Below, piece after piece: positions 1-19,094 of a stretch of DNA of 64,000 nt; position 1 is the stretch's first letter, and each line of letters begins with the position of its first letter. The translations under genes and the position numbers were made by a program. Origin of the DNA: an uncultured Victivallales bacterium (lineage in GTDB: Bacteria > Verrucomicrobiota > Kiritimatiellia > UBA8416 > CAYSRM01); contig CAYSRM010000002.1 in assembly GCA_964433435.1 (NCBI GenBank), positions 1,292 to 65,291 of the forward strand. Reading direction: 5' to 3'. The notes under the pieces were generated by a model. That model was not told where the DNA came from. It saw only the letters and a program-made list of their open reading frames with translations, and did no database searches.

Positions 1-961
1 CCGGGGACATGTATTCCACGTTCCCCACCAGGACTCCGTGATCTTGCTCCATAAACTGCGCTGCTTTTGCGACTCCGAAATCGGTCAGTTTGACTTCGCC
101 CTCGCGGGTAATCATAATGTTATTAGGAGATACATCCCTGTGAACCAGTCCAAGCGCTTCGCCGTTTTCGCTGGTTTTTGTGTGAGCATACTCCAACCCC
201 CTACAGATTCGGCTGGCGATAAACCTTGCTAAGCGCCTGTTCATCCGTATATCAAGACATTTGTGTTGGTGAATCAAGTCTGACAGGTTAATGCCATTAA
301 TGTATTCCATAGCTATATAGTAGCCGTGGTCATGGCGGCCAAGCTGATGTATCTGCACTATATTCTGATGTACCAGGTTGGCCACCAGTTTGGCTTCGGC
401 TATGAAAGAAGTGACAAAACTTCTTTTCTTAACATATTTTGGGAGGATTGTTTTTATGGCCACTTTTTTAATGAAACCCTCGGCTCCGAATTGCTCCGCC
501 TCATACACAGAGCCCATGCCGCCATCGGCAATCTTGCGTTTCAGGTAATAGGTGACCTTGCCGAAGACATGGCGTGAAAGCTCCCGGGCAGTGTCCGGCG
601 GTTTGTCCATGGAATCATATTCCGCCAGAGCTTCCTGTGTATTTTCTATTGGCACTGTTTCCGAGGAAGGGGCCCCCTGTTCAGGCCGCTCGATACGGAT
701 CCTGCTGTTGCCTATTACCAACCCGTTGCCGTCGCGCAGTTCCGCCCTGATGAGTCTTTCCCCGTTTATTTTGATCCCGTTGGTGGACCCAAGATCTTTT
801 ATAAACCAGCAATTATTCTCTGGAAACAACTGGCAATGCACCAGAGAAACAGCCTGATCCCGAATCACGATATCGTTTGAGATATCTCTGCCTATTAAGG
901 CGGCGTCATGTATCCTATAGCGTTCTCCGGTCAACGGGCCGGACAGAAAGATCAATTTCAC
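1..961 (-). CDS. FHA-domain Ser/Thr protein kinase (Hanks type); C-terminal part lies beyond window start
   Basis: Reverse-strand translation: N-terminal FHA domain (…YRIHDAALIGRDISNDIVI…GSTNGIKINGERL…), then Gly-loop/VAIK (GGMGSVYEAEQ…VAIKTI), catalytic loop LVHRDVSPNNIM, DFG (LTDFGVAKA) and activation-loop YMSPE. Probable GTG start at 959-961. No stop before position 1, so it is absent from the ORF track. Confidence 0.8.
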   Translation of the reverse strand, partial: MKLIFLSGPLTGERYRIHDAALIGRDISNDIVIRDQAVSLVHCQLFPENNCWFIKDLGSTNGIKINGERLIRAELRDGNGLVIGNSRIRIERPEQGAPSSETVPIENTQEALAEYDSMDKPPDTARELSRHVFGKVTYYLKRKIADGGMGSVYEAEQFGAEGFIKKVAIKTILPKYVKKRSFVTSFIAEAKLVANLVHQNIVQIHQLGRHDHGYYIAMEYINGINLSDLIHQHKCLDIRMNRRLARFIASRICRGLEYAHTKTSENGEALGLVHRDVSPNNIMITREGEVKLTDFGVAKAAQFMEQDHGVLVGNVEYMSP

Positions 962-1147
962 GGTTTCAAGAGCTCCGGTTAAGCAAGTATGCTGATATAT
1001 TTACATTCCTGAAGGACTGTAGGCAAGAGTTTACGCCAATGGTCCCGGTTATCCGCGGCACCGTGTAGATTTGCGGGATATCGTCTCTTTACGGAAAGAA
1101 ATCGCGTCATCGAAAATAATGGGACAGCGTACCAGGTCTGCCCTTTA

Positions 1148-1344
1148 CCCGCATATCTCACAGAATTCCTGCTGCGAGCGCGGATAGCGCCACTGCGACG
1201 GCACGAATTGACAAAACGCCAGATTGCAGTATGTCTATACGGCTGCTCCGGCGTTTCACCAATTCGCACCCCCGCAGCAGCACTTTCCACGCTCTTCCGC
1301 CGTATGGCGGACAGGCTACTACGAAATCCTGTGAGATATGCGGG
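1148..1344 (+). mobile_element. MITE-like palindromic repeat, near full-length copy (197 bp), family copy 1
   Basis: Terminal inverted repeats CCCGCATATCTCACAGAATT (1148-1167) and AATCCTGTGAGATATGCGGG (1325-1344). Internal arms are mutually complementary (CTGCTGCG/CGCAGCAG, CGAATTG/CAATTCG). About 90% identical to the copy at 13209-13384, with partial copies at six further loci. Confidence 0.75.
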
Positions 1345-1482
1345 TTTACCCGCAAAATAGACCTGAGCAATTGGTTTGATTGCTTGCTGCAGAGCATCAG
1401 CCTTCAGGCTGCAAAAAAGGCTGTTTTATGGGGTTCATGCGAATCTTCCCTGCTATTCAACCTTGGGATAGTAGTGATTTTC

Positions 1483-2583
1483 TTACAGCAATGGAGGAAT
1501 TGGCACGTTGGCTTCTCTGCCTATGTCAACACACATATTCCAGGTTTTTCCGAGAACAGGCACACCTGTCTGTTCGGTTTCCTGCTCATGTTCCTGTTCT
1601 TTTTGCCCTGCAAAGTAAACACGTTCTGCGTCTTCGGCAGGCGGACACTTGCGAAGACTCTCAAGCATACGGTCCATATCATGGCGAAACTCCGCTGGCT
1701 CGCGGAAGGCTTCAATTTTGATTGCTCCGAAGAAATGGCTCACTCTCGCGGATGATTCAGCAGTATCAAAAACATCCTCCCCGAACGGGGCGCCGCATAG
1801 AACTGAGCAGAGCACATCGATCATCACGGCCAGACCATATCCTTTGTAACCGCCGTGCGACTCGCCCAGTCCGCCCAGAGGCAGGATGCCTCCGCCGATA
1901 CGTTCCTGCATATCATCAAGAAGACTGCGCGCGTTTCTGGCCGAGCGACCTGTTTTATCGACCGCCCAACCCTCGGGCAAAGGTTTTTCGTGGCGGTCAT
2001 ATACCTCTATTTTGCCACGGGTGACAACAGTTGTGGACATATCCAGTACAAAAGCCCCCTCTTTCTGTGCAGGCGCGGCAAATGCCAGTGGATTAGTGCC
2101 GAACATCACCTGTCGACCGAATGTTGGAACACCCAACGCAGCCGTGTTGGTCATGGCAATGCCAAGCATATCAGCCTCAAGCGCCATCATGGCGTAATAC
2201 CCGGCAATACCGAAATGATTGGAGTTGCGTACGCAACCAAAGGCAGATCCATTCCCCCGCGCCTTTTCAATAAGGGATTTCATGACTCCGACGCTTACCG
2301 GTGCGCCCATTCCCCCTTTTGCATTTACCACTAAAGAGCTCGAAGTGTCCATCAGAGTTTCCGGAACTGCGTCATGCACCATGAGGCCGGACTTTAATCC
2401 GTTGACATAGCGCCACAGTCTTCCAATTCCGTGAGAGGGAATCCCTCTTACATCGGCGGCTACCAGAACGGAGGCAGCCTGGCTGCTTTCTTGAGCGCCC
2501 AGACCCTGTTTCTCAAATACCGCTGCACAGAACTGTTCAAGTTCTTTACGTCCTACTCTTACCGTTTCTGCTGTTGTTGTCAT
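1483..2583 (-). CDS. Ldh_2 family (malate/L-lactate/ureidoglycolate/sulfolactate-type) NAD(P)H-dependent dehydrogenase
   Basis: 366 aa from ATG at 2583 (MTTTAETVRV…). Family-typical segments GIPSHGI, HFGIAGYY, GTNP, HGGYKGYGL. The ORF-track start at 2676 is probably an upstream in-frame extension. Confidence 0.75.
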   Translation of the reverse strand: MTTTAETVRVGRKELEQFCAAVFEKQGLGAQESSQAASVLVAADVRGIPSHGIGRLWRYVNGLKSGLMVHDAVPETLMDTSSSLVVNAKGGMGAPVSVGVMKSLIEKARGNGSAFGCVRNSNHFGIAGYYAMMALEADMLGIAMTNTAALGVPTFGRQVMFGTNPLAFAAPAQKEGAFVLDMSTTVVTRGKIEVYDRHEKPLPEGWAVDKTGRSARNARSLLDDMQERIGGGILPLGGLGESHGGYKGYGLAVMIDVLCSVLCGAPFGEDVFDTAESSARVSHFFGAIKIEAFREPAEFRHDMDRMLESLRKCPPAEDAERVYFAGQKEQEHEQETEQTGVPVLGKTWNMCVDIGREANVPIPPLL

Positions 2584-2605
2584 ATAATCCCTTAATCTGA
2601 TGTCT

Positions 2606-5263
2606 TTATATGTTCTCTGTACCTGTCTGCACCATTTCAATGTTTTTATTTGGGCAACGGTGAATGCACATGCCACAGCCTACGCATTTATCCTCATCAA
2701 GAATTACGCGTCCCTGCGGGTCCATGCTCCAGGCAAATACCTTGCATATGTCCTTGCATATCTCGCATCCAGCCCCGCAACCACAAGCCAGACAACGTCC
2801 GGCTTCTGACACCGCCTGCTCCTCGCTCAATACGGTTGAATAACGCTCGAAATCGGCAACCCGCTCGGCCGAAGGCCGCTTCTCAATCTGCACACGCGGA
2901 CGCCGTGGACGATTTCCGGTGCGTTCAAGCACTTTATCTCTGTCGCTCATGACTTTTTCAATATCAGCTGCCAGGAAGGCATCTTCACCTCGCAGATCAG
3001 CATCAATAGACGCGGCCGCACGTTTACCATCGGCAATAGCGGCAATTACACTGCTTGCTCCGCGCGCGCAGTCGCCTCCTGCATAAACGCCGTCAACGTT
3101 GGTGGCGCCGGTTGACTGGTCTATGCCAATGGTCTGACGCGCGGTCAACTCCAGGTCCATGCCTTGATCCAACCGAACCCGCTGCCCGAGCGCGCTGATT
3201 ACATTGTCAACTTCAAGCCTGAATTCAGTGCCGGGAACTTCTCTGGGCCGACGTCGATCGGATTCGTCCGCCTCGCCGAGAACATAGTTGAGCATGCGAA
3301 GCCCCTCAACGCGGTCGGAACCGAGAACAGCCTGTGGCGCCACGAGATACATGATTTGTATACCTTCAGCCTCGGCATCTTCAATCTCATCACCCGTTGC
3401 CGGCATCTCATCTTTTGTGCGGCGATATAAGACATAAACGGTTTCCGCGCCAAGCCGCCGGGCGGTTCGCGCGGCGTCCATTGCTGAATAGCCTCCGCCT
3501 ATAATTGCCACACGCTTGCCGAGTTCAGGCGCATTGCCATTGGAGACATGTTTCAGAAATTCAACAGCCGACATGGCTCCCGGCAGGTTTTCCCCGGGCA
3601 CGCCAAGTTCCAGCCCCTGCTGAGCGCCAATACCGATAAATATGCTGTCAAATCCATCCTTTCTGAGGTCGGCGAGGGTAAAATCGCGGCCAAGCCGACT
3701 GCCGGTCTGGAACGAAACCCCTGCCTCGCGGATCATATCAATCTCTTTTTTCAGCTTATCGTTATCAAGCCGAAAAGCGGGAATGCCGGAAACCAGCATA
3801 CCGCCCAGCCGGTCCGCAGCTTCAAAGACCTTGACAGTATACCCCGCGCGCGCCAGATCATAGGCGCAGGCCAGACCAGCAGGTCCTGACCCTACAACCG
3901 CCACGCTCCGGCCATGCTTCTCAGCGCGCGCGTCATGGATGCGCGGTTTCCAGCCCTCTTGCTCGGCCATATCCAGTACAAAACGCTTGATTTCACGAAT
4001 GCGGATCGATTCATCCATCAATCCGCGAGTACAAGCCTCCTCGCACGGATGGTCGCATACTTCCCCGCATATCGACTGCAGAGGCGAGCGCGACATAATG
4101 AGCTGATAGGCTTCCTCGAATTCGGATTCAGCGACCTTGCGGACGTACCCTTGAGCCGGAACCGAATTCGGGCAGGCCCAGGTGCATGGCGCCACAAGGC
4201 CGTCCACCGATTTTTCAGCGTGCCCGGCATATAACGTAAGGTCGGGCGCGGAAGTCACGGCCGACACGAGACGATCGCGCATTTCACGAGGCGCTTTATA
4301 ACCCTGTGCCTTGAGGAAGGCCTTGAAGTGATGAATAAATTCAGGCAGGAATCCATAACCATTGATCAGTGTAGCAGTGCACATGCCCACAAGATCTGCC
4401 CCGCACATTATCATCTCAACTGCATCCTGCCATTTGAGAACGCCGCCGGTAGCTGTAAGGATCGCGTTTTCCCCGCAACGTTTGCGCATTGTGTAGACAT
4501 CGCGCAAGGCCAGAGGTTTGAGCCATTCCCCGTTCATACAAGCCATGCCTATCTCTTTCTGCAGATAATGATCGCTGGTCTCCGGGGCATAAATATTCAC
4601 CGGCGGAATTCCCAGGCGGTTGGCGTTGCCTCCAACGGCATCGGCTCCTGCATCAATGGCAGCCCTGGCTATTTCCGCCTGCTTACCCCCTTCAGGGGTT
4701 ACTTTGAGAAATAACGGGATGGACGTTTCTGCTTTGATCGCCTTGACGATTTCGGCAATCGCTTCCAAATTCTGGCCCAGACTCGCTCCGGTCCGAGGTC
4801 CTTCACTATAAGTTCCGGAAACCTCAACATTAAAAGACATGTTCGGACAGCACATGTTTAGCTCATTGACATGCGCGCCCGCCTCTTCGCATTTTTTCGC
4901 CATTTCAGCCCAACCCGCGGCCCCTTTATCGCCCGAATAGGTTATGTTTGAAAACAAAACAAGGTTCGGAGCCTTTTTGCGGCCCTTCTCAATCAATTCA
5001 AGGAGTTGGTCAAGAGTTAATCTGCGCTCGGCTGTAAAGGTCAGGTAAGTCTTTTCGGGATAGTAACCATAACGCGGATGACGGTTGATATACGGCGCAG
5101 GGTCAACGGTTAATTTCAAAGAGGCACCGCCCCAACCGGTCGCATCGATACGCTCAAGCTGCTCCACTGTCATTGTGGTTGGGCCCGACGCGACATAGAA
5201 AGGATTACGGAACTTCACGCCGGCCATTTCAACCGGTAGGTCAAAATCAGTATATTTAGCCAT
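2606..5263 (-). CDS. fused dihydroorotate/dihydropyrimidine-dehydrogenase-like FMN domain + [4Fe-4S] + GltD/PreT-like FAD/NAD(P)H oxidoreductase + C-terminal 2x[4Fe-4S] ferredoxin
   Basis: 885 aa from ATG at 5263 (MAKYTDFDLP…; GGAG RBS). The N-terminal half is a DHOD/PreA-like TIM barrel. The middle has the Cys cluster CGEVCDHPCEEAC followed by a dinucleotide-binding motif VAVVGSGPAGLACAYDLARAG and a second IIGGGYSAMD. The C-terminus has CLACGCGAGCEIC…CVGCGMCIHRCP. A 4-nt gap separates it from the upstream gene. Confidence 0.75.
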   Translation of the reverse strand: MAKYTDFDLPVEMAGVKFRNPFYVASGPTTMTVEQLERIDATGWGGASLKLTVDPAPYINRHPRYGYYPEKTYLTFTAERRLTLDQLLELIEKGRKKAPNLVLFSNITYSGDKGAAGWAEMAKKCEEAGAHVNELNMCCPNMSFNVEVSGTYSEGPRTGASLGQNLEAIAEIVKAIKAETSIPLFLKVTPEGGKQAEIARAAIDAGADAVGGNANRLGIPPVNIYAPETSDHYLQKEIGMACMNGEWLKPLALRDVYTMRKRCGENAILTATGGVLKWQDAVEMIMCGADLVGMCTATLINGYGFLPEFIHHFKAFLKAQGYKAPREMRDRLVSAVTSAPDLTLYAGHAEKSVDGLVAPCTWACPNSVPAQGYVRKVAESEFEEAYQLIMSRSPLQSICGEVCDHPCEEACTRGLMDESIRIREIKRFVLDMAEQEGWKPRIHDARAEKHGRSVAVVGSGPAGLACAYDLARAGYTVKVFEAADRLGGMLVSGIPAFRLDNDKLKKEIDMIREAGVSFQTGSRLGRDFTLADLRKDGFDSIFIGIGAQQGLELGVPGENLPGAMSAVEFLKHVSNGNAPELGKRVAIIGGGYSAMDAARTARRLGAETVYVLYRRTKDEMPATGDEIEDAEAEGIQIMYLVAPQAVLGSDRVEGLRMLNYVLGEADESDRRRPREVPGTEFRLEVDNVISALGQRVRLDQGMDLELTARQTIGIDQSTGATNVDGVYAGGDCARGASSVIAAIADGKRAAASIDADLRGEDAFLAADIEKVMSDRDKVLERTGNRPRRPRVQIEKRPSAERVADFERYSTVLSEEQAVSEAGRCLACGCGAGCEICKDICKVFAWSMDPQGRVILDEDKCVGCGMCIHRCPNKNIEMVQTGTENI

Positions 5264-6320
5264 GCTGCTCCATTTGTATTGTGCGGGCTTCCTGGCTCGA
5301 TGTGTATAACGCTTCAACTATCCGGTTGCAGGCTGATCCCATACGTCCGCTTACGCCGTATTGCGGGGTTTGATCATTCTTCACGCAAGCCACACAATAA
5401 GCAAGCTCATCAACATAGCCCAGGTTGTGAAACTCGTCAACTGCCGGGCGGGTCCAGCCCAGGGTGTTGTCCGCTTTTTCGATACAATAAGAATAGCCCG
5501 ACCGGCTGTATACGTTGACCGGCGAACTGAAAGTCAAATCAACACTGACGCGTCCCTCGCTTCCATAGATCTCGATTTTGTCGTCCATCCCGCCCACGGT
5601 AATATAGTTGGCCTCAATAAACCCGTGCACTCCATTGCGGAATTTAAGAATGCCGCATGCCCAGTCCTCCCCGCTGTTGTCCTTGTGAACATAATTATCT
5701 TCGCCGCCGCCATTAGTTTTTCCGACCACTTCGACAACCGGGTTTGATCCTTCCTGTCCTAGAAAGTACAGCATCCAGCCTATGGGATGGATGCCAAGGT
5801 GTATAAGGCTGCCTCCGCCGCATGTCTTTTTGTTTTTTGCAAAAGGACTGTGTGTGCCGTTATGAACTTCCTTGGCCTTGACATATAAAACCTCGCCTAT
5901 GGCTCCCTCGCTCACAACCTCACCGACTTTTTTCAATGCCGGAGCAAAAACCCAATCCTCAGCATAAAATGCTTTGATGCCGGCGCCGTCGCAGGCCTTG
6001 ATCATTGCTTCGGCTTCTGCCGCGTTGATGCCGAAAGGCTTTTCGCAGACAACATGCTTGCCGGCTTCAGCCGCGGCGACAACTACGTCGTGATGCAGGA
6101 AATTAGGCACACAAACGGATACCAGATCTACATCGTCACGCTTCAGCATTTCATGGTAATCCTCGTGAGTTGAAGGTATATCCCACTTTTCGGCAAAAGG
6201 CTGCAAATTGTCGATTGCAGCAACAGCCGTCAACTCCACATTCGAGTTCCTGGAATATGCATCAGCATGAAAGTCGGCCGCAAACTTCGATCCTACAATC
6301 CCTACACGTACTTTATCCAT
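5256..6320 (-). CDS. Gfo/Idh/MocA family NAD(P)-dependent oxidoreductase
   Basis: N-terminal Rossmann segment MDKVRVGIVGSKFAADFHADAY, a conserved EKP motif (VVCEKPF) and the typical alpha/beta C-terminal domain. Its start overlaps the upstream stop (ATGA). Confidence 0.8.
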   Translation of the reverse strand: MDKVRVGIVGSKFAADFHADAYSRNSNVELTAVAAIDNLQPFAEKWDIPSTHEDYHEMLKRDDVDLVSVCVPNFLHHDVVVAAAEAGKHVVCEKPFGINAAEAEAMIKACDGAGIKAFYAEDWVFAPALKKVGEVVSEGAIGEVLYVKAKEVHNGTHSPFAKNKKTCGGGSLIHLGIHPIGWMLYFLGQEGSNPVVEVVGKTNGGGEDNYVHKDNSGEDWACGILKFRNGVHGFIEANYITVGGMDDKIEIYGSEGRVSVDLTFSSPVNVYSRSGYSYCIEKADNTLGWTRPAVDEFHNLGYVDELAYCVACVKNDQTPQYGVSGRMGSACNRIVEALYTSSQEARTIQMEQHG

Positions 6321-7102
6321 TATTCTGTTTCCCCCAATCCACTGTAATTCGCATTCTTCCGCAAACGCTCAATGCGGTCACGCAGGAAAGACAACAAACC
6401 TTCTTCGGCTGAACGCAGCAATGCTTTGCCTTTTTCCTGCGACGCCGTTTCGGAGCGGCCTATGACACCTTCTCTGTTGAAATGGCCGATACCGAAAGTT
6501 GTCAGATCCGGTTGACTCAATGGAACCGGGCCTTGCAATGGCGGCATATTCGGCCGGGCATCTCCCACCAGCTCAGGCGCCAGGGCCAGCATGAAGGAAG
6601 TCTCTGTTTCTGCCGCATGGATACTTAATCCTTCCTGCCGGGAAGCATCCAGCAACGAACGATCCAGAAAGGAAAATGGGCTGACCAGAATTATTTTTAC
6701 CGGTCCGTTATGCCTGTTGATATCGCGGCAAACAGGCACCAGCGCATGATTGCCGCCATGTCCGTTGAGAACAATCACTATTCTAAAGCCCTGCTGCCCG
6801 GCTTCTTCAACAATATCGCGAACAACCTGCATCAGTGTTTCGGGCTGCAGTGAAAACGAACCGCGAAAGCCTGAATGCTCCATGCTTGTTGCGATGGTCA
6901 GGCAGGGAAGCAAAGCCGCTGAAAAAGCATCTGCCGTTTTTCGCGCAAAATGTTCAATCTGAATGCTGTCTGTAGCCAGGGGCAAATGAGGGCCATGTTG
7001 TTCCATGCTGCCAACGGGCATCACAAGCATATCAGTATCACTCTGTTGCCAATCAAGCGACCTCGCTGAAGAATCAATTCTGGATGATCTGGAAGAAACC
7101 AT
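6320..7102 (-). CDS. creatininase-family amidohydrolase (creatinine amidohydrolase / ArfB / MftE-like)
   Basis: PVGSMEQHGPHLPLATD and LNGHGGN metal-binding motifs typical of the creatininase fold (PF02633). First gene of the minus-strand operon. Confidence 0.75.
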   Translation of the reverse strand: MVSSRSSRIDSSARSLDWQQSDTDMLVMPVGSMEQHGPHLPLATDSIQIEHFARKTADAFSAALLPCLTIATSMEHSGFRGSFSLQPETLMQVVRDIVEEAGQQGFRIVIVLNGHGGNHALVPVCRDINRHNGPVKIILVSPFSFLDRSLLDASRQEGLSIHAAETETSFMLALAPELVGDARPNMPPLQGPVPLSQPDLTTFGIGHFNREGVIGRSETASQEKGKALLRSAEEGLLSFLRDRIERLRKNANYSGLGETE

Positions 7103-7386
7103 AGTCTACACCTTCGCATTGCATTTTATATTACAATCGGCATGAGGTTGGCGCAGGCGTTTATACCCCGGAGCCGGGTGCCAGTTCGTCTTGTTGCACC
7201 ATGTCTGGGAATGTATAAATGCCTTGTTTTTTTGTCAAGCTTACAACCAGCAATTCGCATGACACCATGTCTGTGTCAAAGTCGAAAACGGAGCGAACAT
7301 GTTGGCACGCTGGAAGCATGATTAAAAGCATGATTGCACAGTTTAAACGCATGCAATAAGATAGTTGCCTGGAAAAGGAGTGTCTT

Positions 7387-7980
7387 TTGAAGAAACCTGT
7401 TTTGACGGAGAAAATGCTGGGCCGGTTTTACAGGCTGCTTTCCCCGGCTATGACCGACTTTGACTGTGGGAAGTTGTGTGCGTCAGATAATGGCGGTATT
7501 CCGGCCTGTTGCGAAGATGAGACGACCTATCCAGTGCTTTATGTTGACGAATTCAAATGGCTGCGAAAGAAGAACAGGTTCTGGAAACGTATGCCGTTGA
7601 GGAATAGGGTGGCCAGGAAGCTGGCCAGAGATCTGCATCAGAACTCATTGCTGGCAAAATGTCCCGGTCCAGCCGCCTGCAACCGCTCAAGCCGGGCAAT
7701 TGTATGCAGGATTTTCCCGTTCGAACCGCATCTTGATGAAGAGGGGCGGGTACAGGGCCTGACGTTCAACTTTGAAATGGAAGATAGATGTCCTCTTATA
7801 GGCAAGCCGGAATCGCTTTTCAATCCTGTCTATATCCGTAATTCAATTGTCTTCTGGAAAGAACTTCTTGATCTCATGCCCGAGGAACAAGATGTCTATA
7901 TGAATGAATCGGCGAGGTTACGGCGACAGTTTGCACGCAAAGGCAGAAAAGCGCCGGTTTTTACGGGCGAGAAGTTGTAG
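7387..7980 (+). CDS. YkgJ/UPF0153-family Cys-rich zinc/iron-chelating domain protein
   Basis: C-x3-C-x9-CC (CGKLCASDNGGIPACC) plus the downstream C…CRIFPFEP segment typical of PF03692. TTG start at 7387 with AAAAGGAG RBS 7 nt upstream (ATG alternative at 7414). Divergent from the 6320-7102 operon. Confidence 0.5.
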   Translation: MKKPVLTEKMLGRFYRLLSPAMTDFDCGKLCASDNGGIPACCEDETTYPVLYVDEFKWLRKKNRFWKRMPLRNRVARKLARDLHQNSLLAKCPGPAACNRSSRAIVCRIFPFEPHLDEEGRVQGLTFNFEMEDRCPLIGKPESLFNPVYIRNSIVFWKELLDLMPEEQDVYMNESARLRRQFARKGRKAPVFTGEKL

Positions 7981-7983
7981 AGA

Positions 7984-8997
7984 TTATTGCTTTTTTGTAT
8001 CGCACATCTTGAGAAGGTCATCCAGACTTGCCGTTGCAAGGCATTCGACTGTATCGGCTGATCCGTAGTAGATTTTGACTTCACCGCTATCCTCAACTAT
8101 GGCGGCTCCGGGAAAGACCACGTTGTTTCTGAATCCCCCGCTGATCTCATACTCAGCTTCCGGCGCGATGAGAGGTTTTGAGGAATACGCCTTGACTTTC
8201 CAAGGTTCATCTTTGTCCAGAAGCATAAGAGAGGCACAGTAACGTTTCTGCCATTTTTTTTCCCAGCCGTTTTTCCCTCTTGAGTTGTCGCGATCCACAG
8301 TATGTATTACGCACAGCCAGCCCTGATCAGTTTTCACTGGCGAAGCGCCCGGGCCGATTTTGTCGTTGGCAAACGGTATGTCTTCGACGGTAAGAACAAG
8401 CTGGTTATTACCCCAGTATTTAAGATCGGGAGAATCTGAAAACCAGGTATCGAACCTGTCAGCGCCACCGCGGCTGTAGACGGGGAACGGCCTTTCGAGC
8501 CTCATATACTTGCTGCCGATTTTTTCGGGAAAAAGCGCCATGTTGCGATTGTCCGGAGCGCTGAGCGAAAGCACCTCAAAGTTGTCAAAATCGTCGGTTA
8601 CTCCTATGCCGCCCCTTAAACCGTGCTTTGTGTCGACGGCAAAACACATGTAGCAGCGTCCTTCAAGCACGGTCAATCGCGGATCGTAGAAACGGACGAA
8701 CTCGGGATCATTGAGTTCTTCCTGTTTAATCCATGGCTCAGGCTGCACTTCCCATGAAATGCCATCGTTGCTGAAGGCCAGGCCGAGGTCAGTAATGATT
8801 TTCGGTCTTCCTTCGTTGCCCGGATACCTGGCTTCGTTACGAAAGACCATAACGTATTTCCCCTCGAATTTGGCGACACCCGCATTGAAAACAAGATCGC
8901 TTGGGTAAGGAATGTCCTTGGGCCCGAGAACGGGATTGTTTTCATGCCGATTGAGGCAGGAATCTGACTTGAGTATTTCAGAGACGGTTTCTCGCAT
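7984..8997 (-). CDS. GH130-family glycoside phosphorylase/hydrolase (beta-mannoside phosphorylase-like)
   Basis: 5-bladed beta-propeller signatures (NPVL…FNAGV…RN…DPRL…WLCVIHTVD…YYGSADT) characteristic of GH130. Confidence 0.7.
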   Translation of the reverse strand: MRETVSEILKSDSCLNRHENNPVLGPKDIPYPSDLVFNAGVAKFEGKYVMVFRNEARYPGNEGRPKIITDLGLAFSNDGISWEVQPEPWIKQEELNDPEFVRFYDPRLTVLEGRCYMCFAVDTKHGLRGGIGVTDDFDNFEVLSLSAPDNRNMALFPEKIGSKYMRLERPFPVYSRGGADRFDTWFSDSPDLKYWGNNQLVLTVEDIPFANDKIGPGASPVKTDQGWLCVIHTVDRDNSRGKNGWEKKWQKRYCASLMLLDKDEPWKVKAYSSKPLIAPEAEYEISGGFRNNVVFPGAAIVEDSGEVKIYYGSADTVECLATASLDDLLKMCDTKKQ

Positions 8998-9459
8998 TTT
9001 TATGATCCTGTCTTATTTTGCCTACAAAAGCAGGTCGGTTTCTTCGTCAAAGTTTCGTTCCAGCGCCTTGTCTTGAAACACTGAAATGCAATATTCACAC
9101 GCAAAAACGACGGTTTCCTTTGCCGGGTTGAACCCTTAAGAATACCTTCGCTGTATGCTGGCGAAGTATGTGCATGCACCATTTGTTCGCCATCGCGAAG
9201 CGATACGTTATGGACATTTATTACCAGTTTTTGAGATATTTGCAGATGATGTCCTGGAAAAGCAAGCGTCAAAACACATTTTGGCGCTTGCCGAGAAATG
9301 GAACAGGCCTTATTCCAGATCACACGCCCTGCATAAGTATTGAGCGCTGATTAGAAAAAAGTTGACACAGGACAAACTAAACAACACTTTTCTCTTTGAT
9401 GGCGGCATTGAGCTGCGTTTTGTTTTGAAAAAATAAGCGCTATAAAGAAGGTGTGTCGT

Positions 9460-12400
9460 ATGAGAGGATATTGGCGGACCGGTTTTGTCGGGGCGTGTGT
9501 GGCGATGTGGGTAGGACTGGTCGCGGGGCCGGCGGAGGCGGTGGTGAAATTTACCGAACGGCCGGCGGCGGCTGAAGAGAAGGGCGAGGTCCGGATTCGT
9601 TTTGCCGTGGATCTGGAAACGGACGTGGCGGTGAGTATTCGGAATGGGGCTGGAAAGGTGGTCCGGCATTTGGCGGCAGGGCGACTTGGAAAGCGGGCGC
9701 CGTCGCCACTACAGCCGGATTCGCTGGCACAGTCGCTGGTCTGGGACGGCAAAGACGACTGGGGGCGTCAAGTGGAGCCGGGCCGTTACACAGTTGAGGT
9801 GGGCCTGGGGCTGACGGCGAGCCATGAGAAGAATTTGGATTGGGATCCCCGGCGGATCGGCACGGTGCATGGCCTGGCGGTTTTGAGCGGCGGCAATGTG
9901 TTGGTTATGAGCGAGACGGGGCGGGACAACAGAGACAGCCAGATTCAGGTGTTTACGGGCACGGGCAAGTACGTGCGAACTCTGGTGCCGCGGTCGGCGT
10001 CCATCGCAGTCGATCGCGCTAAACCTCTGGGGGAAATGATTCTTGCGACCGGCGAACGGTTTCCCAGTTCGCTTTTGCCTCAGTTCGGCGGGCGGGTTTA
10101 TCAGGTTCCGCTGGCAATGCCGGACGGCGACATTATCATCTGCAACTGGCTGGCGCCGCAGGGGCATGCGGAGGCGAAGCGGTTTCGGAGCAAGGCATGG
10201 CGTCAAGACTTGGACCGGCGCTTGCTGAGGCTGGCCGCCGATGGCGGGGCGTCTTCCGCCGGATACCTTGGACCGACGTTAACCGGAGACCTTGAAAAGG
10301 CCGTGGTTTTTCTGGCGCTTGGGCCGGATAACCTGATCTATCTTTCTGGCGGTTCCGGCGCGGTATATCGGGTGAAGTGGGGGGAGAATGAAAAGCCGGA
10401 GGTGTTTGTCAAGGGTCTGAAACAGCCGCGCGGAATCGGGTTCGACGCGGCGGGGAATCTGTACGTGGCCGACCGAGGTCTTCACAAGGTGGTCGTTTTT
10501 AACCAAAGAGGGAAACGCATCGCCGAAATTCCGGTGGAATGGCCGCGACATCTGTGTGTTCACCCCCAACGCGGCCATATGTATCTTACCGCTGGTTATG
10601 AAAAACAACGTTTACTCAAGTTTGACAGTATGAAGAGTGTCGCGCCGGCGGTTGCCGTGGATTTAGTGACCGACTGGCCGTTCCTTGCGCTGGACACGTC
10701 GGCCCGCCGGCCGGTTCTGTATGTCGGTAATACGCACGTGAGTAAAAGGCCGGGGGCGTCGAACATGGGGATCACGCGTTTTGTGGACAAAGGATCAACG
10801 TTGGCGCCGGCCGGTATGCTGGGCGAAGCAGCGCGGCCGAGGCAGCCGTTGCTCTACGGAGTTGACCGGGTGTGGGACAAGATTTACGGGAACTGGCCAT
10901 TCAGTGACTGGTGGCGGATGGACGGGGCAACCGGAGCGGTGGAGACGTTCGATCCGTTAGTGTCGCCCAAGGCGAACGGCATCACGGAGATCGCGGCGTC
11001 TCCCGACGGGCTTGTGGTGGCGCATGTGCGTGGTGAAATCGGGCGACTGGATCATCATCTGCGTCCGTACCCGTTTGCGGCGACAGGTTCGTATATTGCC
11101 GAGCTTCCGAATGAAGACAGCATTCGGAGCTATTATGGGCGCGATGTGGCGATGGCGCCGGACGGCGGTATGTACTGGATTTTCGAGAGAGGCGGGTACA
11201 ATCAGCCCATGCGGTGTTCTGCACTGGATTTCCGGGGTGAAACGAAGCGGGATTCCCTTATTGTTTTCGAAAGCGGCAGTCCGGCGGGTGTTCGGGTGGA
11301 TCGTAAGGGGAACATCTACGTGGCGGACCATCTCAAGCCTTTGGACAAGCTGGTGCCGGACGCGGTAAAGGAGGTGGTGCAACCGCGCAGGCGGGACTTG
11401 TTCGTCCATCATTACGGGAGTTTGCTGAAGTTCAAACCCACGGGGGGAGCGGTGCGCCTACTGAGCCGAGGGAAGCCGACGGTTCGGAAACTGGAGCCAG
11501 GCCAGATGCAGTTCACGGCTGCAGAAGGAGTAGGAGATTTCGTAGTGGACGGCGCCATCTGGAGCTATTTCGGAGTCTCAATGATCCGGCCCGCGCGACC
11601 GCGCGACGGATGTCAATGTTGGACACCGCGGTTTGATCTGGACGATTTCGGGCGCGTTTTTGTGCCGGATCAGCTCCGCTGCCGGATCGTGGTGCTGGAC
11701 GGCAACGGGAACGAAATCCTGGCCTTTGGACAATACGGGAATATGGATGACAAGCCGGTAAAGGGCGAAGATGGGATTCGCTGCATTCCGCTCGCTGATC
11801 CGCGGACGGTGATGGTTGGACGCGATTCAATCTATGTGGGGGACATGACCAACCTGCGCGTGGTCAAGGTAGGGTTGTCCTATCGCGTTTCCGACACGTG
11901 TGGCGTCACCCTGAAGCGGACGCCCCTGGCGCCGACACAGGTCATGACGGCTCTTCGCCGGTACGCTCGAGAATTGAGCCCGTACGCGGCAGACAACCTT
12001 AACTGGGATCTTGTTGAAACGCGTATTCTGCGTCTCGGCGAAGATGTAACTCGGGATGAAGCGCGGGCGGAACTGTGTCTGGCCTGCCGCGATCTCGTGA
12101 AGTGGCCGGAAAAAGAGCTGAAGACATTGCTGGGAAATGCGCTTCAGAGCGAATCCGAGGTGTTGCGTTGTGCAGCGCTTTGGACGCTTTGGGACGGATT
12201 TGGGGGCGAGACGGGCGGGGAGATGCTGAAAACGGCGGCGGAAGAAGACGACTCGGAGCTGGTTCGGACCGTGGCGGCTGTCACGTTGCTTAGCATGGAC
12301 GACACTGCGGGACTGGCGCAGGTGTTTGAGAGCGCGATGTCGGCGAACGACGTTGTCTATCGGCTTGCTGAGACTGCCATCCTTAAGAAGGCGATTATGC

Positions 12401-13080
12401 GCGATGCCGAACACCCCAAAGCGCGGCTTGTGGATAAATGGCAGGTGATCGTTCCGCGGTATGAGATAGGCGATCGCGAGGTGGATTCTCTGGTTAAAAT
12501 ACTGAAGCAGATAAGCAAGCGTGATGAGAAAGGCCGTGTGACATCGTGGTATCTTCAGCGAGCCGCGATTTTTCTGCTTGGGTTGAGCGAGAACGAAAAG
12601 GCCGCACAAGCCCTGCACGGGGAGCTGGTGAACGGCAAACCGATCGGCAAAAATCTCAACCGGTTTATTGGCGGTCTTGGCGCCTTGAGATACCGGCCGG
12701 CTGTGAAGGATCTGCTGTTCTATCTGGCCCGCGGGTCAAACTCGTCGTGGCGGGGCGGGCATGGCGACCAGGCCGAAATGTACTCGGCAACAGCGCTGGG
12801 CAGGCTGGGCGCGCCAGAGTCGGTGAGCCCGGTAATTGATCTGCTGGACAGCAGGACTAAAGGCGTGTCCGAAGAGGCCCTGCGTGCCTTGACCCTGATG
12901 TTCGATCCGTCATGTCCTGCGGACAGCCGTGTGGTGCCGGCTGGCGACAAACTCGAGCGCGTGCGCATGGATGCGTTGCCGGACGCAAAGGCGAGGAAGA
13001 AGGCATGGGCGGATTACTGGGCGGCCCACAGTGAAGCGTACGCCTGGCAGAAAAAAGGGTGGGGCTTGGGGCGGAAATAA
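9460..13080 (+). CDS. large secreted NHL-repeat beta-propeller + C-terminal HEAT/PBS-lyase-like repeat protein
   Basis: ATG 9460 with GAAGG RBS. Signal peptide MRGYWRTGFVGACVAMWVGLVAGPAEA. Repeated …YVAD… NHL motifs (NLYVADRGLHKVVVFN, NIYVADH). The C-terminal third is alpha-helical HEAT-like repeats (AALWTLWDGFG…, VAAVTLLSM…). Confidence 0.6.
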   Translation: MRGYWRTGFVGACVAMWVGLVAGPAEAVVKFTERPAAAEEKGEVRIRFAVDLETDVAVSIRNGAGKVVRHLAAGRLGKRAPSPLQPDSLAQSLVWDGKDDWGRQVEPGRYTVEVGLGLTASHEKNLDWDPRRIGTVHGLAVLSGGNVLVMSETGRDNRDSQIQVFTGTGKYVRTLVPRSASIAVDRAKPLGEMILATGERFPSSLLPQFGGRVYQVPLAMPDGDIIICNWLAPQGHAEAKRFRSKAWRQDLDRRLLRLAADGGASSAGYLGPTLTGDLEKAVVFLALGPDNLIYLSGGSGAVYRVKWGENEKPEVFVKGLKQPRGIGFDAAGNLYVADRGLHKVVVFNQRGKRIAEIPVEWPRHLCVHPQRGHMYLTAGYEKQRLLKFDSMKSVAPAVAVDLVTDWPFLALDTSARRPVLYVGNTHVSKRPGASNMGITRFVDKGSTLAPAGMLGEAARPRQPLLYGVDRVWDKIYGNWPFSDWWRMDGATGAVETFDPLVSPKANGITEIAASPDGLVVAHVRGEIGRLDHHLRPYPFAATGSYIAELPNEDSIRSYYGRDVAMAPDGGMYWIFERGGYNQPMRCSALDFRGETKRDSLIVFESGSPAGVRVDRKGNIYVADHLKPLDKLVPDAVKEVVQPRRRDLFVHHYGSLLKFKPTGGAVRLLSRGKPTVRKLEPGQMQFTAAEGVGDFVVDGAIWSYFGVSMIRPARPRDGCQCWTPRFDLDDFGRVFVPDQLRCRIVVLDGNGNEILAFGQYGNMDDKPVKGEDGIRCIPLADPRTVMVGRDSIYVGDMTNLRVVKVGLSYRVSDTCGVTLKRTPLAPTQVMTALRRYARELSPYAADNLNWDLVETRILRLGEDVTRDEARAELCLACRDLVKWPEKELKTLLGNALQSESEVLRCAALWTLWDGFGGETGGEMLKTAAEEDDSELVRTVAAVTLLSMDDTAGLAQVFESAMSANDVVYRLAETAILKKAIMRDAEHPKARLVDKWQVIVPRYEIGDREVDSLVKILKQISKRDEKGRVTSWYLQRAAIFLLGLSENEKAAQALHGELVNGKPIGKNLNRFIGGLGALRYRPAVKDLLFYLARGSNSSWRGGHGDQAEMYSATALGRLGAPESVSPVIDLLDSRTKGVSEEALRALTLMFDPSCPADSRVVPAGDKLERVRMDALPDAKARKKAWADYWAAHSEAYAWQKKGWGLGRK

Positions 13081-13208
13081 GGGGCATAGGCGTTCCGGGT
13101 CTGTCCGCGAGGTATGCGCGTGGAGCGATATTTTCCCGCGTCTGTGAATCAGTCATGGTTTGGTTGCCAAACGGAGGATATGGATGAAAACGATAAGTAA
13201 AGTTCTAG

Positions 13209-13384
13209 CCCGCATATCTCGCAAAATTCCTGCTGCGATCGCGAATAGCGCCACTGTGAGGGCACGAGTTGACCAAACACCAGATTGCAGTATGTCTATA
13301 CGGCTGCTCCGGCGTTTTATCAATTTACGCCCCCGCAGCAGCGCTTTCCACGCTCTCACTACGAAATTCTGTGAGATATGCGGG
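13209..13384 (+). mobile_element. MITE-like repeat copy 2 (176 bp; lacks the internal 21-bp CCGCCGTATGGCGGACAGGC hairpin segment)
   Basis: Same TIRs as copy 1 (CCCGCATATCTC… / …CTGTGAGATATGCGGG) and same orientation. It ends 9 bp before the first plausible start codon of the downstream gene. Confidence 0.75.
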
Positions 13385-13393
13385 CTAGCCTTA

Positions 13394-16300: not shown

Positions 16301-16543
16301 CTCTTGCCCGAAAACCCCGCCTTCAAGAAAGTTGGCGGCAACGATGCGCCCGAGGTCATGCGCCACCAGTGGCGCGTTGAGGTGAGCGGACCCGATCCCG
16401 GCGCCGCGGACCAGGTATTCCTGCACGTTCTGTTTCCGGCGGAGACAACGACGAAAGCCATGCCTAAGTGCGAGGTTAGGAAAAAGGGAGCCGAGTATGT
16501 AGTAACCGTCGGAGGGCAGACGATTTCGGTTGGAGCAGAGTGA
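13394..16543 (+). CDS. HEAT-repeat + heparinase II/III-like polysaccharide-lyase-domain protein
   Basis: N-terminal about 400 aa of PBS-lyase HEAT-like repeats. The C-terminal region has the …HFHCGDSLDMHGGYDQGKFVIFKHKPLA… signature of heparinase II/III-like/alginate-lyase-type domains. The start is uncertain: the ORF is open in frame back through the MITE to 13160, ATG 13394 gives MIFAVGC(lipobox-like)GSP, and ATG 13274 lies inside the MITE. Confidence 0.6.
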   Translation: MIFAVGCGSPLAVANGMEAQTKLDLRVFDGRASSFLARMEEAGMPVYRLTDVAEIRVPPLAGVTDPRTALEQVAAASDLHLEWVENKPLLCYLSPPGQKRVLQDKDDVDTIGWSGSKQDVAAILAFSRKADPPLKRACAEAVLRFGRAAGAALLDREAAEDLVRFALTDDNWLLRRQAVLAAVDLGLDNAAAMVEKAAMDKHSEVVRAAALAAGRLGGEKGAAILEKLLNPEHVDRRFRRDVRFAVTYGCAELGTDKAVELLDKLVEGKDAYLAVWALRAAGLVGNDRALALLKEAAADSDPRRKRGAAIGLGHCRAEGAVETLAPLAMFSPPREGMWVQPQNAAAVALGRHGTKEAVKILIEAWDKPADSPRLGILYALGLAGTPAALDFLETQRKNPDERLQQAASWALDKKNGMEGGPVKADGVEVEVLPGRPRLWLRAGNRDGYEGPSLVKIRRNFRRPDYRRAAKMDKLPRDRMGQLVLWLVSGDEFAGMDAAAWACEMQDKGIARARGRTPSYWGISVQRTAAAYDWLHGHGDVDPVTRRMIMHHLEDWALNAYEWVEKKHSTVFYSRRWGALAGCGVAGLALYGDSPLADKCVELAAWHMTAADGLGSIRQAQDGVTAGSCYGLHHMFTDNANLVAALTYATDLDVASIIREQRGDWLRKQLYFQMHCTYPDGTFLKDGDMWSGASERSQYRMQVDVVTGLYQDGFGRTWADRMAARWPAYYPSDYHTKYVWQFFVFNDPDVKGRPLAEMPRCMLFSPKLDGYVLWRSGWGKDDTVVHFHCGDSLDMHGGYDQGKFVIFKHKPLANKNGIYKHFGSPLHKYYRSALSANVVIFDSPVRRGKGRTTEQIGYQNKAGGVNSFDEFKKVRASFGPPVGKIVKHEVTKNYARAVGVLDGSTQDKGKENKWTREMVFLDYQYVVVLDRVRTGPQSSAKWLLNFEKEPRVESDVIRFDNEPGRLFCRTLLPENPAFKKVGGNDAPEVMRHQWRVEVSGPDPGAADQVFLHVLFPAETTTKAMPKCEVRKKGAEYVVTVGGQTISVGAE

Positions 16544-16631
16544 GAATCACGGCGGTGCAATCGCTACGGGAAGGCTTGCCTGGATGGACGGCGAGTCTCC
16601 CCCGAATACATCATTGCAGGGGCCTGCGGTA

Positions 16632-16668: not shown

Positions 16669-16699
16669 TTAGGCTTGGATAGAGAAAGGGAGTTTGCTT

Positions 16700-19039: not shown

Positions 19040-19094
19040 TGCGTAGCTCGGTCCGAACTTTCAAACACATTGTTTATGCTCGAAAGGAAAACTA

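Follow-up and report, generated by a model that had tools for sequence, protein, structure and literature searches.

Architecture of the operon

The window analyzed here is a stretch of 64,000 nucleotides (nt) of contig CAYSRM010000002.1 from an uncultured Victivallales bacterium. At positions 1483-7102 it carries four genes, all on the minus strand, for a creatininase-fold hydrolase, a Gfo/Idh/MocA dehydrogenase, a fused flavo-iron-sulfur reductase and an Ldh_2-family dehydrogenase. These genes form an operon that we take to be a self-contained catabolic unit; its target is probably a sugar derivative that bears nitrogen, not a classical pyrimidine or creatinine. Coordinates were confirmed by an open reading frame (ORF) and Pfam scan, and the corresponding gene calls in a public protein collection (260, 354, 885 and 366 amino acids, aa) have exactly the same lengths:

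6320..7102, minus strand: creatininase-fold metal hydrolase, gene 1 of the operon; 260 aa; PF02633, E 5.8e-55
5256..6320, minus strand: Gfo/Idh/MocA NAD(P)-dependent dehydrogenase; 354 aa; PF01408, PF22725 and PF02894
2606..5263, minus strand: fused single-chain oxidoreductase of the dihydropyrimidine dehydrogenase (DPD)/YgfK type; 885 aa from ATG; Pfam/NCBIfam domains
1483..2583, minus strand: Ldh_2-family NAD(P)-dependent 2-hydroxy/2-oxo-acid dehydrogenase, last gene; 366 aa from ATG; PF02615

The ORF and Pfam scans support the strand and family of all four genes as named in the original prediction, which had been made from the sequence alone. Junctions were read directly from the sequence. 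The predicted 8-nt overlap of the Gfo and fused genes at 5263..5256 (ATGGCTAA) and the 22-nt gap before the Ldh_2 gene were both found; the junction of the creatininase and Gfo genes, predicted to be a 4-nt ATGA overlap at 6320, is TAATG and overlaps by 1 nt.

The predicted operon is upheld by these overlaps and tight spacings and by its retention in relatives with unrelated flanks. The same four genes stand in the same order in L084/L085 and L086, whose fused proteins are 80% identical. The unit is flanked by PMSR and OsmC genes in one of these relatives and by APH and exonuclease genes in the other, unlike in the window, where the flanks are an FHA-kinase gene and a GH130 gene. Because the order is kept in the closest relatives while the flanks differ, the arrangement is beyond chance, and from the constant content amid changed flanks it follows that the four-gene unit moves or persists as a module. 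Conservation of the neighborhood, which had been proposed as a check, holds for the gene order in these relatives but not for the creatininase gene, which was found in only 12 of 87 loci.

The fused flavo-iron-sulfur reductase

The fused protein contains all cofactor domains of DPD in a single chain, namely a flavin mononucleotide (FMN) barrel, a Fer4_20 domain, a flavin adenine dinucleotide (FAD)/NAD(P) domain and a C-terminal dicluster. Residues are numbered from the ATG of the 885-aa protein:

4319..5239, minus strand: N-terminal DHO_dh-type FMN TIM barrel, presumed substrate site; aa 9-315; PF01180, E 1.3e-25
4838..4864, minus strand: active-site loop ELNMCCPNM; by alignment N136 corresponds to DPD N668 and C139 to the DPD catalytic C671
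4616..4621, minus strand: invariant N215-R216, at DPD N736-T737 with an offset of one column; the Arg is absent from DPD
3953..4204, minus strand: Fer4_20 domain; aa 354-437; PF14691, E 2.6e-21
3026..3907, minus strand: FAD- and NAD(P)H-binding GltD/PreT-like domain; aa 453-746; PF07992, E 5.2e-32
2627..2773, minus strand: C-terminal 2x[4Fe-4S] ferredoxin-like dicluster; aa 831-879; Fer4-type Pfam matches

On the 903-aa ORF the same Pfam domains fall at 27-333 (DHO_dh), 372-455 (Fer4_20), 471-764 (Pyr_redox_2) and 849-897 (C-terminal 4Fe-4S dicluster). The C-terminal ~520 residues match PRK12771, a GltD-like module with dicluster, at 497 bits over 374-897 in ORF numbering. Cysteines 360, 364, 399, 403, 407 and 411 of the Fer4_20 domain, which in DPD and GltD carries two 4Fe-4S clusters, are invariant in the family, as are cysteines 824, 827, 829, 833, 836, 840, 860, 863, 866 and 870 of the dicluster.

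The best solved match of the FMN barrel was pig DPD residues 531-839 (E 7.7e-22), followed by class-1A dihydroorotate dehydrogenases (DHODs). Alignment of the 69 full-length members of the family shows N20, K50, R64, F76, E79, R81, N136, C139, P140, N141, K187, N215 and R216 to be invariant (69/69), with ELNMCCPNMS(F/Y)N as the loop motif. The FMN lysines K574 and K709 of DPD have their counterparts in K50 and K187. The pyrimidine contacts of DPD are Asn609, Asn668 and Asn736/Thr737, and of these only N668 (N136) is in register: the N609 column is variable (T, A, S or C), N736 aligns with A214, and R216 aligns with DPD Val738. The retained Cys and Lys residues, the changed N609 column and the invariant Arg lead us to read the enzyme as keeping the hydride-plus-Cys C=C chemistry of DPD and DHOD but binding a ligand other than uracil or thymine, probably an anionic one. 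The active-site motifs are unchanged in loci that have no Gfo gene, which makes it probable that one reaction is common to the whole family and that the family is isofunctional.

The predicted cofactor complement (FMN, FAD, NAD(P)H and four 4Fe-4S clusters) is that of mammalian DPD and of bacterial PreT/PreA (PydA), and the barrel is nearest to DPD domain IV, with Cys671, Asn668, Lys574 and Lys709 conserved. It differs from DPD in a permuted domain order, with the FMN barrel N-terminal, in loss of the N609 and N736 contacts and in the family-specific invariant R64, R81 and R216. A Pyd system would moreover include dihydropyrimidinase and beta-ureidopropionase, and neither is encoded in or next to the operon. 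YgfK shares the single chain with the order FMN barrel, Fer4_20, FAD/NAD(P) domain and two 4Fe-4S clusters, and BLASTP aligned residues 243-871 of the fused protein colinearly with YgfK 337-951 at 30% identity. Both enzymes use NAD(P)H (predicted for the fused protein), both stand beside amide-bond hydrolases, and both have OTCase-family and PF07969 enzymes as alternative partners. The N-terminal barrel of YgfK, however, gives no Pfam DHO_dh match whereas that of the fused protein does; the uricolytic context of YgfK (xdhD, ssnA, hyuA, ygeW/X/Y) is absent from the window and from related loci; and the constant partner of the fused protein is a Gfo/Idh/MocA enzyme, with a lower pathway of sugar-acid type.

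Scores against curated NCBIfam models were below cut-off throughout: 166.8 bits against 335 for PreA, 356.5 against 835.3 for YgfK (TIGR03315), 113.7 against 270 for pyrD_sub1_fam and 108.2 against 269 for PRK07259. Identification as PreA, PyrD or YgfK was rejected on these scores together with the motif differences. In public records the protein bears generic names ('FAD-dependent oxidoreductase' and 'glutamate synthase beta subunit-like/dihydroorotate dehydrogenase'), and literature searches on the family found no paper.

Distribution of the fused reductase

Relatives of the fused reductase were sought by a pattern-based scan of one genome per species, the count from which is a lower bound. 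They were found in at least 388 species genomes of more than 10 phyla, including Planctomycetota, Kiritimatiellia, Lentisphaerae, Verrucomicrobiota, Clostridia/Oscillospiraceae/Christensenellaceae, Bacteroidota, Acidobacteriota, Gemmatimonadales and Firestonebacteria. The best 80 of the 388 carriers are all metagenome-assembled genomes (MAGs), with 50-70% identity over the full length. The 80 loci examined come exclusively from uncultured anaerobes of sediments, soda lakes, peat, rumen and human gut. The nearest full-length relatives are 56-80% identical, and identity across phyla is 50-80%. A tblastn search of the fused protein against 72,556 plasmids gave matches to the C-terminal GltD-like module and no full-length relative. 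Two paralogous copies of the fused gene per locus were observed in L049 and L081 (Oscillospiraceae MAGs), together with Gfo, short-chain dehydrogenase/reductase (SDR), Amidohydro_3 and CE4 deacetylase genes.

Census of gene neighborhoods

Gene neighborhoods were compared by tblastn over 87 non-redundant fused-gene loci. In 58 of the 87 an ortholog of the Gfo/Idh/MocA protein, 42-69% identical across phyla, is encoded no more than 8 kb from the fused gene, usually directly adjacent to it. With creatininase present in only 12, the conserved core is the pair of Gfo/Idh/MocA enzyme and fused reductase, a redox couple kept in more than ten bacterial phyla. A 2-Hacid_dh gene is present in 23 loci and an Ldh_2 gene in 6 as well as the window, and the two never occur together; most 2-Hacid_dh genes, and the window-type Ldh_2 genes, lie directly after the fused gene. 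Mutual exclusion and the shared position indicate non-orthologous displacement of one 2-oxo/2-hydroxy-acid step. This one-for-one swap in most lineages fits a generic step of that kind better than the cyclic-imine or ureidoglycolate specificity that had been suggested for Ldh_2.

The remaining partners fall to two types of chemistry. At least one lower sugar-acid gene was found in 31/87 loci; counts were 19 for SDR, 19 for 2-keto-3-deoxy-6-phosphogluconate (KDPG) aldolase, 15 for PfkB kinase and 4 for FGGY kinase. At least one amide-cleaving or transcarbamylase gene was found in 37/87, with 10 loci carrying a gene like that of ornithine transcarbamylase (OTCase), 6 Amidohydro_2, 6 Amidohydro_3 and 4 a CE4 deacetylase; class-III aminotransferase (6), GNAT (4) and NagB-like (4) genes were also counted. 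Among these partners, the SDR exceeds the cut-off of the NCBIfam D-mannonate-oxidoreductase subfamily model (339 against 281) and the aldolase those of the Eda models; the PfkB protein is closest to kinases of 2-keto-3-deoxygluconate (KDG) and KDGal, and the 2-Hacid_dh protein resembles GhrB-type glyoxylate/hydroxypyruvate reductases. In L087 the genes for a DegT aminotransferase, creatininase, Gfo, fused reductase and 2-Hacid_dh follow one another and adjoin KDPG aldolase and PfkB genes, and in L080 and L021 creatininase, Gfo, fused reductase and Ldh_2 occur together with SDR, Eda and PfkB. Other members of the directons are CUT2 sugar ATP-binding cassette (ABC) transporters, MFS, SSF and AEC carriers, and TetR (RutR-like), AraC and GntR regulators; DegT aminotransferase, lyxose-isomerase-like cupin, xylose-isomerase-like TIM barrel, CN_hydrolase and Peptidase_C26 genes also occur. 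Because transporters (CUT2, MFS, SSF) and TetR, AraC and GntR regulators are present, the clusters are catabolic, and they combine sugar-acid chemistry with steps that remove N-acyl, amino or carbamoyl groups.

In genomes of the Planctomycetes-Verrucomicrobia-Chlamydiae (PVC) group a divergent, highly conserved OTCase-like gene precedes the Gfo and fused genes in tight coupling (L003 7950-8915, L015 1714-2697 and 8 more loci). Its product keeps the carbamoyl-phosphate motif STRTR, with HPxQ changed to H(S/A)TH, SMG to SML and HCLP to HSGP. It falls below all NCBIfam cut-offs and is closer to OTCase than to aspartate transcarbamylase (ATCase). An ordinary ArgF or PyrB was rejected on the scores and the altered motifs. 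The combination of a DHO_dh domain, an OTCase/ATCase-fold gene and amidohydrolases does mirror PyrB-PyrC-PyrD, and the fused enzyme could be an unusual dihydroorotate dehydrogenase of pyrimidine biosynthesis that has PyrB-like and PyrC-like neighbors in some genomes; alternatively, the neighbors could be unrelated genes. Both are very improbable. The PyrD score given above is far from its cut-off, the OTCase-like protein is on the OTCase side and non-canonical in its motifs, and regulators, transporters and catabolic partners (kinase, aldolase) are present in the clusters; chance is opposed by overlapping genes and by an order that stays constant while the flanks change.

The same OTCase-like gene bears on the model of the original prediction, in which an N-heterocycle of ureide type (like a pyrimidine, hydantoin or purine) is catabolized by reduction and ring opening, either by the logic of YgfK-SsnA-YgeW/UacY or as pyrimidine biosynthesis run backwards. 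The fused enzyme would dearomatize the ring, the creatininase-fold enzyme would open it, the transcarbamylase or a hydrolase, where present, would take the ureido group, and the Gfo and Ldh_2 enzymes would process the hydroxy or amino acid. YgfK reduces 2,8-dioxopurine (isoxanthine) with NAD(P)H in a reaction detectable only when coupled to the amidohydrolase SsnA, and downstream of it YgeW (OTCase family, PF00185) or UacY (a PF07969 amidohydrolase) removes the ureido group (bioRxiv 10.1101/2025.05.19.654654). YgfK with SsnA is thus a characterized precedent for the predicted coupling of a reductase to an amide-bond hydrolase, which is sensible. The fused protein matches it with the full DPD cofactor set, the catalytic Cys and the YgfK domain order, and the two ureido-cleaving families recur beside the fused gene (OTCase-like in 10 loci, Amidohydro_3 in 6), the OTCase-like protein with STRTR kept and second-substrate motifs altered. 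Linked TetR regulators are RutR-like, and L080 carries a CN_hydrolase. The constant partner is, however, a sugar-type dehydrogenase and no hydrolase, and the frequent sugar-acid kinase, aldolase, SDR and CUT2 genes would be useless to a free nucleobase pathway. Two uracil-binding Asn residues of DPD are not conserved, the window operon has one hydrolase and no decarbamoylating enzyme, no carbamate kinase was found near the OTCase-like genes in L003 or L093, and the Pyd, YgfK and creatininase equivalog models all fail. We consider this alternative unlikely and retain it as a serious candidate; if the substrate is a ureide, the operon would represent a third reductive N-heterocycle pathway beside the Pyd and uric-acid routes.

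The statement in the original prediction that the gene set is not a canonical Pyd, Rut or creatinine pathway is well supported, given the failed PreA, creatininase and AllD models and the missing Pyd partners. Its proposed pyrimidine-, hydantoin- or creatinine-like substrate did not fare as well: because of the core pair, the sugar-acid neighbors, the 2-Hacid_dh swap and the two lost uracil-contacting Asn, a free pyrimidine, hydantoin or creatinine is unlikely and a nitrogen-bearing, sugar-derived substrate, possibly cyclic, is more likely.

Partner enzymes of the window operon

None of the four proteins is accepted by any curated equivalog model of NCBIfam. The creatininase-fold protein scores 186.7 bits with PF02633 (cut-off 31.3), and fails the models for MftE (107.5 against 172), creatininase (TIGR04448, 105.6 against 235) and IolN (65.6 against 245, E 3.9e-18, residues 22-181 only). 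It shares the fold and most metal-site motifs of creatininase, MftE, ArfB and IolN, but all four specific models fail. Aligned to creatininase structures, the active site is alike in the E-x-H...D and NGH motifs and the catalytic His, and departs at NGHGGN, where creatininase has NGHYEN (Tyr121 and the metal ligand Glu122). Mycofactocin context was not found either, the neighbors in the window being the Gfo enzyme, fused reductase and Ldh_2 enzyme. A true creatininase, MftE or IolN was rejected on score cut-offs and motifs; the predicted activity is likely that of a de-N-acylase or a cyclic amide, lactone or beta-diketone hydrolase.

Orthologs with 56-69% identity occupy the same operon position in L084, L086 and L087, and the protein sits in a PVC subfamily at 45% identity or above. 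Some members of this subfamily are fused or adjacent to GNAT domains outside fused-gene clusters, which is not a feature of any characterized member of the creatininase family. In P0152, P0154 and L088 9001-10813 the homologs (48-51% identity) are GNAT-fused or lie directly upstream of a GNAT gene, which pairs a hydrolase with an acetyltransferase, and GNAT genes of the same type adjoin the fused reductase gene in L022, L032/L091 and L060.

The Gfo protein matches PF01408 (E 1.4e-25), PF22725 (5.3e-19) and PF02894 (3.1e-17), with a visible EKP motif. Its best solved relatives (E 1e-25 to 1e-28) are 6jw6, 3ezy from T. maritima and the C-glycoside 3-oxidase DgpA. The models for IolG (119.4 against 355, E 1.5e-34) and levoglucosan dehydrogenase (92.7 against 650), and all others, fail. 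The Ldh_2 protein matches PF02615 over its full length (E 2.2e-111, 372.6 bits), and its best solved relative is 1v9n (250 bits). Sulfolactate dehydrogenase (210.7 against 500), AllD (177.2 against 496) and YiaK-type (126.8 against 316) models all fail, and the identities AllD, ComC and YiaK were rejected as below curated cut-offs.

The IolN and IolG matches raise the question of cyclitol catabolism, in which the Gfo enzyme would be an inositol-type dehydrogenase, the fused enzyme would reduce a ring enone formed by dehydration of an inositol-like or shikimate-like compound, and the creatininase-fold enzyme would be an IolN-like C-C hydrolase of a cyclic 1,3-diketone, giving a ketoaldonate for Ldh_2/SDR and a KDG route. 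The IolN model describes 3-dehydro-scyllo-inosose hydrolase, and the second-best solved relative of the Gfo protein, 3ezy, is a T. maritima dehydrogenase that we take to be TM0414, the IolG of the inositol pathway of that organism. The T. maritima pathway ends with KDG kinase and aldolase. L010, L011 and L080 encode transporters of the CUT2 type, whose monosaccharide cargo includes inositol, and xylose-isomerase-like TIM barrels (the IolE fold) are encoded in L004, L008, L012 and L087. Yet both model scores are far below their cut-offs, the creatininase-fold protein scores higher with MftE and creatininase than with IolN, and many nitrogen-related partner genes would have no role. A cyclitol substrate is accordingly regarded as improbable.

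Proposed pathway

From the gene content, operon structure, conservation, cofactor-binding domains, retained catalytic residues and neighborhood statistics described above, we infer a substrate class, an order of steps and a direction for each redox step. Tentatively, and with rather less than even confidence, the operon is taken to be a catabolic module in which a ketone made by the dehydrogenase precedes C=C reduction of an anionic, orotate-like (amino)sugar-acid intermediate, the product passing to a KDG-type route. The creatininase-fold hydrolase would first de-N-acylate a small sugar-derived, probably nitrogen-bearing substrate, or open its cyclic amide or ester. Candidate substrates are an N-acylated amino sugar or sugar acid, an unsaturated uronate- or ulosonate-type acid, N-acetyl-hexosamine-derived acids (compare the route from N-acetylglucosaminic acid, GlcNAc1A, to KDG) and hexosaminuronic acids. 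The Gfo enzyme would then oxidize a secondary (allylic) or beta-substituted alcohol to a ketone, giving a conjugated anionic enone X-C(COO-)=CH-C(=O)-. This enone is an isostere of orotate, N-C(COOH)=CH-C(=O), the type of substrate used by the DHO_dh fold. In the fused enzyme electrons would pass from NAD(P)H to FAD, through four 4Fe-4S clusters and on to FMN, and the C=C bond would be reduced by DHOD/DPD chemistry with a hydride from FMN and a proton from Cys139. Ldh_2, or 2-Hacid_dh in other lineages, would interconvert the resulting 2-hydroxy/2-oxo acid. The product would enter a KDG/KDPG-type lower pathway (SDR reductase, sugar-acid kinase, Eda), encoded in cis in many relatives, and end via KDG and KDPG as pyruvate and glyceraldehyde-3-phosphate. 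Replacement of a sugar-acid dehydratase by the Gfo and fused pair was considered and rejected, as elimination beside a hydroxylated carbon gives an enol, for which no ene-reductase is needed.

Several observations weigh against the proposed pathway. No kinase, aldolase or SDR gene was found in the 64-kb window, and if the proposal is right the lower KDG/KDPG-type pathway must be encoded elsewhere in the genome. Free 4,5-unsaturated uronates turn spontaneously into the keto acid and need no reductase. The fused enzyme may run as a reductase or as a desaturase. A rough neighbor-joining tree splits the creatininase genes that are linked to the fused gene into at least two clades; the place of the hydrolase thus seems to have been taken on more than one occasion, and the hydrolase step may differ between lineages, which matches the variety of amide hydrolases in the census. 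The tightly linked OTCase-like transcarbamylase (10 loci), the CN_hydrolase, and a Liv-type ABC transporter with MttB are all easier to reconcile with a ureido or amine substrate than with a plain sugar acid. The transporter and MttB are those of L048 4085-10073 (an Actinomycetota MAG): after its Gfo and fused genes come a Liv-type (Peripla_BP_6) ABC transporter and an MttB-family methyltransferase, a hint that the substrate of that lineage is amino-acid-like or a quaternary amine.

Nitrogen would also be accommodated by amino-sugar oxidation of the GlcNAc1A type. Here the Gfo enzyme would act at C1 of an N-acetylhexosamine, the creatininase-fold enzyme would be a de-N-acetylase or lactonase, the fused enzyme an NAD(P)-linked deaminating dehydrogenase of a 2-amino aldonate, taking a hydride from the carbon that bears N and COO- (compare dihydroorotate), and Ldh_2 or 2-Hacid_dh a 2-ketoaldonate reductase. 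All four window genes thereby receive a role. The 2-Hacid_dh partner resembles GhrB-type reductases, and GhrB is also known as 2-ketoaldonate reductase. De-N-acetylases of varied fold (PF07969, CE4, creatininase) occur by the fused gene, as do GNAT, NagB-like and aminotransferase genes. A known aerobic route leads from GlcNAc1A through a deacetylase of the D-aminoacylase fold and a deaminase to KDG and KdgK (PMC12017989). No DHO_dh-family member is known to oxidize C-N bonds, however, and the invariance of Cys139 speaks for acid/base chemistry on a C-H alpha to a carbonyl; a pyridoxal phosphate (PLP)-dependent ammonia-lyase would suffice in one step, and the OTCase-like gene is left unexplained. 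Oxidation of this type is given a small chance.

For the orotate-like sugar-acid intermediate proposed above there is a chemical precedent in NanOx/YjhC, a Gfo/Idh/MocA enzyme that forms 4-keto-DANA (DANA, 2-deoxy-2,3-didehydro-N-acetylneuraminic acid), a ring enone acid O-C(COOH)=CH-C(=O) (PMC7535918); compounds of this kind are what the fused enzyme is proposed to act on. NanOx/YjhC, DgpA, levoglucosan dehydrogenase and IolG have the same Gfo fold as the window protein, and DgpA and 3ezy are among its closest solved relatives. These 'oxidize then eliminate' enzymes differ from it in their low identity and in the failure of all equivalog models, and in their systems the enone is resolved by hydration or by xylose-isomerase-like lyases. 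To our knowledge no such sugar system uses a DPD-type reductase. With GlcNAc1A catabolism (OngB/OngC/KdgK) and the Luteolibacter L-galactose/L-glucose pathway, the relatives of the operon share a KDG-type kinase, Eda and aldonate/ketoaldonate dehydrogenases, as well as a de-N-acetylase of D-aminoacylase fold. Those sugar-to-KDG routes differ in using a PLP deaminase or a dehydratase and no flavo-iron-sulfur reductase, and none of their lower-pathway genes is present in the window.

It is possible, if doubtful, that the fused protein founds a widespread isofunctional DPD/DHOD-type family acting on a carbohydrate-derived orotate isostere made by its Gfo partner. Were this true, the sources of the isostere would be an unsaturated uronate or ulosonate or an N-acyl dehydro-amino-sugar acid, and the family would provide a new anaerobic route from (amino)sugar acids to KDG and the first DPD chemistry in sugar catabolism. 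A sugar-derived substrate would extend the chemistry of DPD, DHOD and YgfK from N-heterocycles to carbohydrates. The DPD/YgfK-type reductive catabolic module is itself known; new here are its constant Gfo partner and its sugar-acid context. The Gfo pairing and the catabolic setting of the operons suggest that the anaerobic carbon and nitrogen turnover of abundant glycan-derived compounds includes a step so far missed. The window operon is a minimal, four-gene version and is handy for expression and assay.

Window neighborhood and further features

The neighbors of the operon in the window are largely carbohydrate-active (GH130, a heparinase II/III-like protein and GH94), which is in favor of a sugar-type substrate; a nucleoside-hydrolase-like protein is also among them. 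At 16694-21988 the genes for the GH94 phosphorylase, for a URO-D-like protein and for one that contains an inosine-uridine nucleoside-hydrolase domain stand in succession; L084 likewise has a URO-D-like gene, upstream of its four-gene unit. Two further features of the operon were recorded:

2584..2605, minus strand: spacer between the fused and Ldh_2 genes; 22 nt, with an AAGGGA Shine-Dalgarno-like motif before the Ldh_2 ATG
7210..7238, minus strand: promoter-like TTGACA-17-TACATT, ~110 nt upstream of gene 1; 10/12 matches, weak evidence

The number of promoter-like and terminator-like matches in the operon region is not above the shuffled expectation, and an Rfam scan of window positions 900-9500 gave no family match. 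A hairpin lies at 1450-1474, directly downstream of the operon. The stretch 962-1482 (~520 nt) separates the end of the Ldh_2 gene from the FHA-Ser/Thr kinase gene (2-961, minus strand); one short ORF of 103 aa was called in it (979-1290, minus strand), and it has no Rfam match. A Cys-rich ORF of 197 aa (7387-7980, plus strand) is divergent from the operon, with no Pfam or NCBIfam match and no counterpart among 83 loci of relatives. At ~9.4 kb the G+C content steps from ~0.47-0.50 to ~0.58-0.62 (stretch 9400-16600). Encoded in it are two very large proteins that contain HEAT and NHL repeats, at 9451-13080 (1209 aa) and 13160-16543 (1127 aa), the second of which has an additional weak C-terminal match to heparinase II/III.

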